NCBI GenBank assembly: GCA_964016885.1
Contig: OZ024749.1
Location: 51,646,001 to 51,710,000 of the forward strand
Direction: 5' to 3'
Length of the DNA: 64,000 bases
DNA from: Eledone cirrhosa
Lineage: Eukaryota
The notes under the pieces are model-generated. The model made no database searches. It had not been told where the DNA came from and was given only the letters and a program-made list of their open reading frames with translations. This document shows positions 15,020-58,160 of this stretch, piece after piece (position 1 is the stretch's first letter; each line of letters begins with the position of its first letter). A program made the translations under genes and the position numbers.

Positions 15020-15227
15020 ATAGGAACGAGTAGAACCCCGACGGCTGAGCTCAAGCCGTTTCGACGGCTAATTCTGGACTGAATTAGTCCAGAATTAGCC
15101 GTCGAAACGGCTTGAGCTCAGCCGTCGGGGTCCTACTCGTTCCTATTACCCACTCTACTACTCTAAGTATTGAGTACTTTGGTGCGTTATGGTCCACCTG
15201 GTTCCTTACCACAACTCCTCCGTTATG
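15020..15227 (+). mobile_element. Family A HHR fold-back insert in (TA)n: 61-bp inverted arms (15020-15080 / 15086-15146) plus an 80-nt 3' tail
   Basis: Arms differ by 1 mismatch. The right arm carries the HHR 3' half GAAA-cggct(tgagctc)agccg-TC-ggggtcc. The tail contains AAGTATTGAGTACT. Confidence 0.85.
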
Positions 15228-15924
15228 TATATATATATATATATATATATATATATATATATATATATATATATATATATATATATATATATATATATAT
15301 ATATATATATATATATATATATATATATATATAGGAGAAAGTATGACCCCTCCGTTATATATATATTTATAATTGTTTCTACTTTTTGGCACAAGGCCAG
15401 CAATTATCCCAGTGCATTACTGGTACTTTATTTTATCGACCCCCATAAAGATGAAAGGCAAAGTTAACCTCGACAGGATTTGAACTCAGAATGGCAAGGG
15501 CCGTTATATAATGTCACTTTATATAATGTCACATATATGATGTATGTGTGTATATATATATATATATATATATATATATATATATATAATGTATGTATAT
15601 ATATATAACATACTTACTTGATATATATATATATATATATGTATAAATATATATATATATATATATGCATACACATACAGAAATGCACACATATATATAT
15701 ACATACATACATACATACATATATATATATGACAATGACCAGGGAAAAGTGTATATTTGTATATTATATTATGTTTTGTTATTTAAACATTTTATTATGT
15801 CGGTTAAATTTACATTTGTATCAATAGGTGTCAATGTATGTATATATTTGTTTTAATACATAGTAAAACAAATATATACATACATATATGTATGTATGTA
15901 TATATTTGTTTTACTATGTATATA

Positions 15925-16093
15925 CCGTAATTCCCGACGTCGAAGACGCTACTTTTTTTTCCTAAAATAAGTCTCAAACGTCTACCATGCGTCCTGGAGA
16001 CCGAACGTTGTTTATTATTTTTTTCAAATTATTGGTTGTCAAAATTAGGGTGCGTTCTCGAGGACGAAGCATCTTCGGCGCCGGGAAATATGA
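15925..16093. mobile_element. Tc1/mariner-superfamily MITE
   Basis: Imperfect 25-bp TIRs ccgtaattcccgacgtcgaagacgc / gcatcttcggcgccgggaaatatga, flanked by TA. Confidence 0.7.
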
Positions 16094-16132
16094 TATATAT
16101 ATATATATATATATATATATATATATATATAT

Positions 16133-16441
16133 CAGTATACACTGAGGATGAAAAACTCAGAGCTGTATGGGAGCATCCCAAAAGTCAGCTCAAAAGTGAC
16201 ACAGAGGAGACTGAGGTTGGCTGGACATGCTCACCGACATCCAGAGTTGACATTGCACTCTGTGCTCCTTTGGGAGCCCCTACATGGACACACTAGAAGA
16301 GGAAGACCAAGGTTAACATATGTTGATGCCCTAAGGACAGACACTGGTCTGTTGGAGATGCAGGATATGGCAGCGATAATGAGGGACAGAGACCGCTGGA
16401 GAGAACTCGTCCATGGATCTCGGGAATTTTACCCGCCTTAG
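16133..16441 (+). mobile_element. 5'-truncated RTE/RTE-X-like LINE 3' end within (TA)n
   Basis: NSELYGSIPKVSSKVTQRRLRLAGHAHRHPE...RRGRPRLTYVD...RDRDRWRELV. Nearly identical to 55963-56388 (-). Confidence 0.88.
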
Positions 16442-16463
16442 ATATATATATATATATATATAC

Positions 16464-54146: not shown

Positions 54147-55437
54147 TTTTCTTTAAGTAATACCAAGTCAAACACTGACGATGGTTAACAAACCAACAAC
54201 CGACATACAATGGAACTCTCTCTGTTACTGTCTTTCATTAACAGGTCTCTTTATTTAACACTGAATTATATTCAAATATACAAGACACACGCATACATGT
54301 ACACATACACATGTACACACACATGTACATATGTACACGTACATGTACACATACACATGTACACATACATGTACATGCACACATGTACTCATACATGTAC
54401 ACATACTCATGTACATATACACATGAACATGTACACATACACAAAGACACGTACACCCAACACACACTCTGTCTCTCACACAGACAAATACATGTATAAC
54501 ATCACTGATAAATGGCTGCATGTACATGCACACACACATACACACGTGCACACACACGCGCACACACACACACACACACACACACACACACACACACACA
54601 CACACACACACACACACACAGACACACACACACACACACACACACACACACACACACACACACACACACACACACACATATATATATATATATATATACA
54701 GGCACACATATATAGCACCAAAATTAAATGCCTGCACTTACACACAGACATAGACACACATACACACAGACAGACACACACACACACAGACAGACACACA
54801 GACACACACACACATACATACGGTATTGAAAAGCACATCACATATTTTGTTTTCGGCCATCCATTGTATGATTTAGAAGAAATATTCAACTCTTCCATCC
54901 AATACAGTTCTTAATCCTTCTAAGTGCAAACAAGAAAAGTTTATTTGATCTTATTTTGAAGTTTGAACGTGTCGCATCCTCCATAGAGAGACTTTCAAGA
55001 CTTTTCTGCTATGGCTTCTGGTACAAATATAGATATTTTATCTAGATCTACAACAGAAATGATTAACAACGTTTCAAGTTTCGATTTGGTTATATTTCAA
55101 GCAACTGAATCAACTGTTAATGGTGTTAAAATGGCGCATAAAAATATTTCATTTTTTTTATAAGGGATATGGCTGACGTGAACGTTTTATAAACAGCCGA
55201 CATATGTCATAATTTATTACCATTATTTTTCTTGATTGGCAGTATCGGTAGACGGTCGGACGCCATTTTTTCCAGCATAGTTACGTCCCTTTACGATCTG
55301 AGTTCAAATCCCGCCGAGGTCGATACTGCCAATCCACCGCCCTTATTAATATAAAAAATAATAATGTATAATTATTAAAAAGATTTCCCGAACTTTTTTT
55401 CTTTAGAGAAGGGATTCAAATTCCATATAGCTTAGGG

Positions 55438-55635
55438 CAAGCATGTCAAACATGCGACCCTTTACAAGCACATCTGCGGCCCGCATAAAGGTTTTTACAG
55501 CACGAGCATATTCTATCTTCGTAATATAAAATTAAAAGAAACTAGTTGTAATGTGCACAATTGGTTGTGTGTGGCCCTCAGACAACACACATGTGACCCA
55601 TGTGGTCCTCGGGGTCCCTCAGTTTGACATGCCTG
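55438..55635. mobile_element. hAT-superfamily MITE with an intact 8-bp TSD
   Basis: TIRs CAAGCATGTCAAAC / GTTTGACATGCCTG. TSD GCTTAGGG at 55430-55437 and 55636-55643. Confidence 0.9.
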
Positions 55636-55962
55636 GCTTAGGGCTTCAGCAGTTGAATTTCCGACACTGCTAGGACAGAGGATTTCTATAATGTGTTTCA
55701 AATGAGACCACATAGTAAACATTATCCTCAAACCTTTTAACACAGAGCAGCTTACCATTGGAACAGTTTACGGTTTCCATCTACACATTAACTGGCAACC
55801 ATCCAAATGAAACATTTGTCGCATAACTGTCTCAGCAAGGCGTTCCTATATTTCAGGGAAGAAGAGGATGATATTGTTAGGTCTCTCTTCTTCGGACTTT
55901 ATATATATGTGAGTGTATATATATATATATATATATATGTGAGTGTATATATATATATATAT

Positions 55963-56388
55963 CTAAGGCGGGTAAAATTCCCGAGATCCATGGACGAGTT
56001 CTCTCCAGCGGTCTCTGTCCCTCATTATCGCTGCCATGTCCTGCATCTCCAACAGACCAGTGTCTGTCCTTAGGGCATCAACATACGTTAACCTTGGTCT
56101 TCCTCTTCTAGTGTGTCCATGTAGGGGCTCCCAAAGGAGTACTGAATGCAATGTCAACTCTGGATGTCGGTGAGCATGTCCAGCTAACCTCAGTCTCCTC
56201 TGTGTCACTTTTGAGCTGACTTTTGGGAGGCTCCCATACAGCTCTGAGTTTTTCATCCTCAGTGTATACTGATTAATGTTCAGAGCCATCGTCAGCCTTC
56301 TCGTGTACCACCCATCCACCATCTGAGTGAGTTTCTTGGTCAATGTCCAAGTATCAGACCCGTAGAGCAGCACAAACTCCACTACAGC
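55963..56388 (-). mobile_element. 5'-truncated RTE/RTE-X-like LINE 3' end within TA repeats
   Basis: AVVEFVLLYGSDTWTLTKKL...RRLRLAGHAHRHPE...RGRPRLTYVD...REFYPP* in an open frame. Confidence 0.9.
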
Positions 56389-57970
56389 ATATATATATGT
56401 GTGTGTGTGTGTGTGTGTGTGTGTGTGTGTGTGTGTGTGTGTGTGTGTGTGTGTGTGTGTGTGTGTGTGTGTGATGTCTTTATCTGTGTATTTGTAGCTG
56501 TGGAAGTTTTTCCGCACACTGAGAATTTAATATGTACTTAACTCCATCTCTTTATCAATGCGTATTCCTGTATACAAGGAGGCATACAGAGATAGGGATA
56601 TATATATATATATATATATATATATATATATATATATATATATATATATATATATATAGTTATGTAAGTAGGTAGTTAGATAGATAGGGAAAATAGATAG
56701 TTAGATATATGTGTGTGTGTGGGTGTGTGTGTGTGTGTAGGTAAGTAGGTATGTAGATAGATGGATACCTAGGTAGAGGGAAAAGAGAGAAAGAGAAATA
56801 TATATATATACGAAGAGAGTAACCAAACAAAAGGAAGAGATGAACAGGAGAGAAAGAATGTCAGACTCTATAAAAGAAGTGAATCAAAAGAACCGAATAA
56901 TAATAGATTGAGAGAGTATGATAAAACTCGCAACTGACAGAAATTTAGTTTCTAAACTAACAAGTATGCTTTCAGAAAAAGGACAAATTTATCAAAATGG
57001 CATTCACTTACATATGTTGTAAAAATGCATCAAATTTACCATAAGAGAACTTTTAAGACTGGACATTTAAACAAGATCTTGCCATTTGAATAAAATAAAA
57101 AAAATTCTTCTCTAAAAAAAAATGGCTTTGAAAACTTGAAAGACTTCAATGATTGTAAATAAAAGTATTCTACGTAAACAGAAGAGGTAAATGTTCGTGA
57201 AACATGGAGGGGAAAAAATTACGTTTATTTTGCTATCAGTATTGGAAGTTGTTTCTTGGGATAGCATTTCATGTACATATGTTCACTTTTTATGTCTCTA
57301 TTTGTAAAACAAACACTCACACACACACAGACACTCACACTCGCATGCACACATACACAGATACACACACTCCGTACACACACATACACAGACACGCTCG
57401 CACACACACACATACACTCGCACACAGACACACACTCGCACACACACATACATACATACATACACATACATACACACAGACACATATTATACACATACAT
57501 ACACACACAGACACACAGACATACACATACATACATACACATACACATACATACATATACACGCGCGCACACACATATACACACATATACTCACACATAA
57601 ACCAAGTGTAAAAACCACGACCACCAACAACAACAACGATATACAATCCTCTACACAACCAGAAATACAGTTACATTATCCAGAATGTTCTATTTAAACA
57701 ATTCTGTGACGTTTCTATTTATTTTATATTTCAACCAAAATATATCAATATTTAACGATACATATTTTGAAAATAATCTTCGTAAACATTTCTTTAAATA
57801 TCGAATGTAGAAATGATAGGACAGTGAAAATATCGGATTAATCCAAATTAGAAAAATATTCTGCTAGAAACTATAATTTGCAGTTTTGGAAAGAGTTTAT
57901 ATATATATATATATATATATATATATGCTTTTATATATATATATATATATATATATATATATATATATAT

Positions 57971-58160
57971 ATAGGAACCAGTAGGACCCCGACAGCTGAG
58001 CTCAAGCCGTTTCGACGGCTAATTCTGAATTAGCCGTCGAAACGGCTTGAGCTCAGCTGTCGGGGTCCTACTGGTTCCTATTACCCACTCTACTACCTCA
58101 AGTATTGAGTACTTTGGTGCGTTATGGTCCACCTGGTTCCTTACCACATTTCCTTCGTTA
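57971..58160 (+). mobile_element. Family A HHR fold-back insert (perfect arms 57971-58025 / 58027-58081, 1-nt loop)
   Basis: Mirrored private variants ggaaccagt/actggttcc and gacagctg/cagctgtc. Confidence 0.87.

Follow-up and report, generated by a model that had tools for sequence, protein, structure and literature searches.

The stretch under study (hereafter the window) comprises 64,000 nucleotides of Eledone cirrhosa contig OZ024749.1, positions 51,646,001 to 51,710,000, and holds short insertions of several Penelope-like element (PLE) families that stack within the same (TA)n runs (Table 1). The subject of this report is family A, four palindromic copies of which (at 15020, 17113, 50333 and 57971) turn near a hammerhead ribozyme and, in all four cases, lack its 5' catalytic half, as an earlier note on this DNA had described. 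With moderate confidence, the family A junctions point to head-to-head stubs of a PLE bearing Hydra-clade motifs, the arms of which would end at a probably capped RNA start inside loop II of the hammerhead.

Arm positions are counted from the G of GAAA, taken as 0. In the copy at 15020, both arms stop at -18 with five inserted bases between them, and the long arm runs in order through the end of loop II, the stem II 3' strand, GAAA and stem III, followed by the cut site, the helix I 3' strand and an 80-nt tail. In the copies at 17113 and 50333, the short arm extends no further than -12 and the long arm starts at -18, which accounts for the loop AGTCCA that the two had been reported to share and that represents the first six bases of the long arm. 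In the copy at 57971, the arms end at about -13 (short) and -12 (long). The inverted arm had been said to end usually at CCTAT before (TA)n; it does so in three copies, and the copy at 17113 carries the variant CATAT. In the fifth, diverged pair, the minus-strand long arm is cut back to +36 and the plus-strand short arm extends upstream of GAAA.

Table 1. PLE-derived features of the window (positions counted from its first letter).
Feature	Position	Strand	Remark
Family A copy 1, short arm (-18 to +42)	15020..15080	-	ends at short tail site before (TA)n
Family A copy 1, junction insert	15081..15085		five bases between two arms both ending at -18
Family A copy 1, long arm (-18 to ~+122)	15086..15226	+	
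Family C palindrome, 190-nt arms	16547..16933		whole CTGATGA...GAAA in both arms; turn ~80 nt upstream of core
Family A copy 2, short arm	17109..17163	-	trimmed to -12
Family A copy 2, long arm, from -18	17164..17306	+	AGTCCA loop = first six bases
Family A solo short arm	29294..29346	+	no long partner
Family E head-to-head stub	30367..30690	+	turn ~40 nt upstream of core
Family B head-to-head stub	30988..31152	+	joined via ATGAAA self-complementarity beside core; atypical for family B
Family H head-to-head stub	31309..31487	-	short arm keeps hammerhead core, one substitution
Family A fifth pair	50174..50326		diverged subfamily, opposite orientation
Family A copy 3, short arm	50333..50387	-	trimmed to -12
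Family A copy 3, long arm, from -18	50388..50530	+	
Family A solo short arm	51528..51580	-	no long partner
Family A copy 4, short arm	57971..58026	-	to ~-13
Family A copy 4, long arm	58027..58163	+	trimmed to -12; short arm reaches equally far or further

The same end point recurs well beyond these copies. In a sample of 1.064 Mb, made up of eleven blocks and the window (seven of the blocks picked near known matches, mostly on small chromosomes), 69 family A insertions were counted, with the furthest 5' end lying within -27 to -4 in 56, upstream of this interval in one and downstream of it in 12. The distribution of breakpoints, a plot of which had been proposed as a check, is thus clearly non-uniform (binomial P ~1e-32 against uniform ends over 150 nt), 13 of the 56 clustered ends being alignment ends at -8/-7, mostly from a diverged subfamily. 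By exact counts across the genome, 18,307 arms reach -18, where the wall reads (C/T)-AGTCC within loop II (here and below, the hyphen marks the wall), and 4,466 of them, about one quarter, continue natively to -25.

Un-inverted copies make up 4 of the first 30 genome matches to family A and reveal the parent ribozyme. The motif at the turn had been read as the 3' half of a type I hammerhead, which is probably correct, and the predicted un-inverted parent does exist, with an ACCCC helix I strand; its core, however, is UUGANAA or CUGANAA rather than the expected CTGANGA, and its stem II 5' strand differs from the inverted arm, which is a DNA copy of the 3' side. Helices I to III are recognizable by eye and partly in computed folds. 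Since loop II of the parent is about 30 nt long, the turn falls in the loop and not in stem II. The U3-A8 core (UUGANAA), a known hammerhead covariant (PMC4209133, in the part of that source available), occurs in 1,073 copies genome-wide and the C3 core in 967, with A8, and hence a 3-8 mismatch, in all of the first 100 C3 copies listed. About half of the parents are therefore of the C3/A8 type, the mismatch being expected to impair the ribozyme, and yet this subfamily has spread to comparable numbers. An Rfam scan of the window returned no hammerhead family among 150 listed of 195 matches, the listed ones being repeat-driven and of miRNA type.

The earlier note had proposed a stall of cDNA synthesis within the ribozyme, followed by snap-back via stem II self-complementarity, so that RNA structure would set the breakpoint. 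Family A ends do cluster near stem II, -18 lies in weakly paired distal stem II of the folded parent, and both the family B copy at 30988 and the class of junctions with an AGTCCA loop use local self-complementarity; nevertheless, this explanation is very unlikely. The wall lies beyond the stem II 3' strand, where a stall would be expected, and among 30 copies bearing an open reading frame (ORF), 16 main arms reach +3, of which 15 pass -18 and none stops there, so that -18 does not stall the enzyme on long templates. Furthermore, the other families turn elsewhere with the core kept: the walls of B (C-AGCTT), D (T-AGTTT) and H (C-AGTCC) lie at helix I or three bases before it, thereby preserving the core, and in family E the turn lies about 40 nt, in the window copy of family C about 80 nt, upstream of the core. 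Folds of the natural parents revealed no common structure or shared upstream pairing at the walls. Given walls outside stem II in B, D and H and the absence of a stall on long templates, stem II does not set the breakpoint; nor does a stall predict the extra G that, as set out below, occurs at -18 and not at +23. Two further copies had been cited in support of a turn just upstream of GAAA. The family B copy indeed turns beside GAAA, but in most family B copies the turn falls where helix I begins and the core is kept; in the family H copy at 31309, the long arm is cut back past GAAA, whereas the short arm retains the core.

Immediately before -18, a non-native G stands on 3,045 arms genome-wide and a non-native A on 599. 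Inspection by eye of 30 loci with this G (10 short arms, 17 long, 3 other) showed that it was not the next letter of the partner arm in 15. In family D, the corresponding numbers are 1,532 for G against 1,202 for A plus C, the C being partly native, and T precedes the G before the wall in 14 of 20 loci. Many junctions read arm-C-N-G-arm, and a G on each arm, the two separated by a single base, is found in 5 pairs of family A and 4 of family D, among the first 100 matches in each case. At -13, the counts are 668 for G and 407 for A (odds ratio 3.1 against -18), and all 5 pairs fetched read arm-C-N-G-arm. This site had been considered as a negative control for the extra G and was dropped because of these same junctions; it acts as a minor start, shared by the two arms of a pair. 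The count at -14 (362) was left aside, as it has no matched partner count, and an arm-to-arm G/T mismatch was discarded as evidence because the query itself carried that T and selected for it. At some junctions (L228, L243, block 5546 of C21), long A and T runs face each other, which suggests untemplated A tails on both cDNA ends; other junctions of this set hold short templated repeats of arm sequence.

The walls of A, B, D and H all consist of a pyrimidine followed by AG, at different places on the ribozyme. Such a sequence, in several cases after a pyrimidine run, could also mark a processed and recapped end at a splice-acceptor-like YAG rather than a promoter start. In this direction lie an intron of D. 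virilis Penelope that ends at the 5' end of helix I, where the walls of B, D and H are found (PMC4209133), and the description of capped tags at intron 3' ends (PMC3814893), each as given in the available part of the source. A recapped end is nevertheless improbable: the AG itself forms part of the arms, which have no upstream exon sequence in common, the minor site at -13 has no pyrimidine run, and the YA+1 context fits an initiator.

A second line of evidence concerns the pairing of arms. Head-to-head pairs account for 38 of the 69 sampled family A insertions, 34 of which combine a long with a short arm, and solo short arms account for 9. Within the 34 long-plus-short pairs, the arm of greater reach is the short one in 16 and the long one in 9, with equal reach in 9; the respective figures are 13, 13 and 11 in a stricter count of 37 pairs that were not chosen for carrying the G. 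The junctions of these 37 comprise 18 with inserts, 13 with short microhomologies, in keeping with the microhomology invoked earlier, and 6 that are blunt. A complete short arm opposite a trimmed long one cannot have been copied from the long cDNA, barring later reworking of the centre, and a rare end site common to the two arms of a pair implies a single RNA molecule. Flipping of the loop after insertion left no trend by age or arm divergence, within these 37 pairs only. It is scarcely credible that these pairs arose as an artefact of assembling or sequencing palindromic DNA, or from a master palindrome that transposes as a unit: hairpins and (TA)n runs are difficult to sequence, but the junctions vary between copies of one subfamily, partner arms differ in sequence (36 differences over 23 pairs), and families that are not related to one another show the same signature.

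A single cDNA that turns back after running off the cap, either held by the protein or through pairing of an added C-A with the TG six bases back, its second strand joining (TA)n at the first TAT and later repair of the centre trimming either arm, is a possible but doubtful alternative. It would explain the long-plus-short rule and identical ends at rare sites, and the C-A/TG pairing would yield one common junction class (6 of 30). Against it stand the solo short arms (9 of 69) and the mirror class (short arm complete, long arm trimmed), which equals the direct class in frequency, also when the count is confined to pairs whose arms are identical (5 against 4). A one-base loop, moreover, cannot arise by base-paired self-priming. 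Plain snap-back of the long cDNA, as the earlier note had it, is disfavoured by the further reach of the short arm in 16 of 34 pairs, by a G of its own on 10 of the 30 inspected arms, these being short, and by the one-base junctions. The published record offers support on both sides, since snap-back after full-length cDNA is described for R2 (PMC11371274) and self-priming is the published reading of PLE palindromes (PMC3846280), as far as the available text of both sources goes, whereas a related protein extends both strands in vitro (PMC11167929).

The preferred reading, that both arms end where the template RNA begins, probably at a capped start inside loop II, would unfold as follows. Two cDNAs would be primed at two tail sites, on opposite target strands, from one capped RNA; both would run off its capped end, from which the extra G would come; the long cDNA would displace the short one; and the two cDNA 3' ends would be joined end to end by a template jump or short annealing. 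The missing 5' catalytic half would follow directly, because an RNA starting in loop II would never have contained it. Priming once on each target strand is proposed by analogy with the PAc protein in vitro. The more specific proposal, that a dimer makes two cDNAs off one RNA, one per target strand, and that their 3' ends are fused by a one-base template jump, allowing integration without cDNA-to-target end joining, is evenly balanced between being right and wrong. If true, the head-to-head repeat would be a built-in product of the cDNA fusion step, and tens of thousands of stubs would record the capped start at single-base resolution, a minority of them recording hammerhead self-cleavage in vivo.

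Several observations weigh against this reading. Both the cap and the position of the start are deduced from DNA, and half of the inspected G cases could be the partner arm's own letter. Of the 13,841 arms that extend to -18 but do not read through natively to -25, only ~22% have the G, and most are preceded by T or C (native, partner-derived or added). The class with an AGTCCA loop (5 of 37, including its mirror form) matches native sequence to -22 and has no G, and could represent real fold-back on a longer RNA. Junction variety may also partly arise later by repair of the palindrome centre. Moreover, none of the 30 ORF-bearing copies begins its main arm at -18, as a full-length transcript starting there would predict, and the stubs may therefore stem from a separate pool of short RNAs: these may come from truncated copies, with long copies arising from read-through, tandem or circular RNA. 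Finally, a TATA-like box is present some 30 nt upstream in families A and B but is not clear in D, E or H, and the wall of family E is less sharp, with no clear extra G.

A smaller set of arms begins at the predicted ribozyme cut site. At +23, 190 arms begin, counted with 6 of the 16 possible upstream dinucleotides, whereas the nearby sites +17, +21 and +27, counted with 9 of the 16, give 33, 73 and 101; a G run leaves the position of +23 slightly uncertain. Of 20 arms inspected at this site, 18 are true truncations. In three of the four pairs fetched, +23 is the precise end of both arms, which are separated by a single base and lack the extra G, and the extra-G pattern at +23 numbers 30 against 190 without it, the two patterns not being exactly matched. 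Lack of a G is what a cap origin predicts for an uncapped end. These counts suggest that cut RNA sometimes serves as template, leaving a possible genomic trace of hammerhead self-cleavage in vivo. Ribozyme cleavage as the main cause of stub ends was rejected, given a few hundred arms at +23 against ~18,000 at -18.

Among the other families, D, E and H are linked to the same kind of ORF as A, and no ORF link was found for family B within 1.5 kb. Families A and B share a TATA-like AAATACCAG (L031, L172) about 30 nt upstream of their walls, with a spacer of 15-17 nt, which keeps the same distance to the wall although the ribozyme sits differently; neither a downstream promoter element nor a shared TATA box was found across families when looked for by eye. 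The core of family D reads CAGAAGA, with A for U4, in nearly all copies seen (L253-L282). A search for relatives of family C gave no match, an uninformative negative. Within the window, a 24-base remnant at 15334-15357 joins a short-arm tip directly to a long-arm tip with (TA)n on either side, a palindrome with arms of ~35 nt at 20987-21106 has a (TA)n run at its centre, as of two element ends facing the same target from opposite sides, and a family D tail piece on the minus strand (17005-17095) adjoins copies of families C and A.

The parent element encodes a reverse transcriptase (RT) followed by a C-terminal GIY-YIG domain, YRDD and IY...YIG being visible in the translations of L062 and L059, and possesses a long 3' untranslated region (UTR) and an apparently full hammerhead. 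A Pfam search of the parent protein gave a weak GIY-YIG match below the cut-off (E 0.045) and no RT family match. The unit measures ~3.8 kb as estimated from L059 and L062; its tail runs on into the 5' UTR, with an ATG ~213 nt past GAAA, and partial tandems of the pseudo-long terminal repeat (pLTR) together with an inverted 5'-truncated copy are present in L059, L061, L062 and 30 ORF-bearing loci. Un-inverted matches end at +42 in 14 of 30 and at +124 in 15 of 30, one running on into the ORF, and both ends finish in TAT beside (TA)n; the two 3' ends are the optional tail of PLEs. The single RT and GIY-YIG ORF, the pLTR architecture and the optional tail from two ends are those of endonuclease-bearing (EN+) Penelope-like elements. 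The C-terminal endonuclease lacks CCHH (one Cys between IY and YIG), CNLC and CKH are present, CxCX5C and DKT are exact, RWR replaces RWK, and insertion into (TA)n is evident from the flanks of window and genome copies. On these motifs, family A is assigned as a putative new Penelope-like family with Hydra-clade motifs.

The Naiad clade, with its N-terminal GIY-YIG, was ruled out, as the endonuclease follows the RT in the parent. A non-LTR retrozyme, defined in the available part of 10.64898/2026.07.22.740005 by head-to-tail tandem monomers each with a complete hammerhead, was likewise ruled out, since family A copies occur head-to-head or singly and without the 5' core. Stubs are more numerous than long copies. 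Four near-identical ORF-bearing copies with the same junction, 14-30 kb apart (L298-L301; C20, 16.25-16.31 Mb), form a local segmental repeat. Fragments of other RT elements adjoin family A copies in L006 (1-1000) and L062 (6878-7999, minus strand), which by their motifs are putatively an L1/Tx1-like RT and a second PLE-like RT, respectively.

PMC8557442 describes the origin of the inverted 5' copies of PLEs as an open question, the published guess being self-priming on an antisense template (PMC3846280, likewise in part). The junction census would turn this question into a testable model that predicts a cap-dependent extra G, one-base junctions and long-plus-short pairing, and it offers a way of mapping PLE start sites from DNA, together with a first hint of PLE hammerhead cutting in vivo. 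PLE proteins are, in addition, of interest as RNA-guided insertion tools, for which closure of the 5' end matters. The architecture is already known; the junction signature and the two-cDNA reading appear new as far as searched, no report of cap-type Gs or start-site pile-ups at PLE junctions having been found in the literature covered, with most subscription papers, figures and most supplements outside its scope. Family A marker sequences were not found in the supplement text of PMC8557442.

In comparison with known systems, family A most resembles in its motifs the Hydra-clade PLEs (Craig et al. 2021, PMC8557442), which the available text describes as carrying CxCX5C, DKT and RWK, a C-terminal GIY-YIG without CCHH, CxxC and CxH near the C-terminus and a hammerhead, and as inserting into (TA)n; family A shares these, the hammerhead as a putative one and with RW(K/R) at the third motif. 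It departs from them in its estimated length of ~3.8 kb, against generally under 3 kb, which the same text states as a tendency, and in its U3-A8 or C3/A8 core, long loop II and stubs that outnumber long copies. Described hammerhead motifs of truncated PLEs likewise show a type I fold, a palindromic loop III, U3-A8 and motif pairs on opposite strands; in contrast, family A has a helix III of 5-6 bp, and its RNA start appears to lie within loop II, as a result of which its stubs carry half a ribozyme.

Head-to-head inverted, 5'-truncated pLTRs with a tail on one arm, junction palindromes and an Inr-like (initiator-like) motif are established for EN+ PLEs (Arkhipova et al. 2013, PMC3846280) and for D. 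virilis Penelope (PMC2377424), in the parts of these sources available. These parts also place transcription start sites and Inr-like motifs within pLTRs, and a start site with an internal promoter in the pLTR is given for D. virilis (PMC2377424) and Chlamys (in the available part of PMC8557442). Family A shares this architecture, with a tail of ~80 nt rather than 30-40 nt, and its junctions point to run-off on a capped sense RNA by two cDNAs, unlike the self-priming on an antisense template read from the palindromes in PMC3846280. The closest biochemical counterpart to the proposed mechanism is the PAc (Poseidon) protein, a predicted dimer that cuts and extends both strands and starts at two internal sites, to which the PLE tail has been traced (Frangieh et al. 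2024, PMC11167929). The two systems are alike in having two RT starts that define the tail, an AT-rich target, uncleaved RNA as the main template and, on the preferred reading, both strands cut and extended; cDNA ends and inverted-arm formation are not addressed in that study, which saw no RNA-seq reads at the ribozyme cut site, whereas family A displays a small excess of arms ending there. Among other retroelements, R2 provides a precedent for snap-back after full-length cDNA (PMC11371274, in part), and L1 (PMC11702581, in part) for a second priming on the other target strand, as in twin priming, and for a cap-derived extra G at full-length 5' junctions; L1 twin priming, however, inverts without duplicating, while the arms of family A copy the same 55-60 nt from fixed priming sites.

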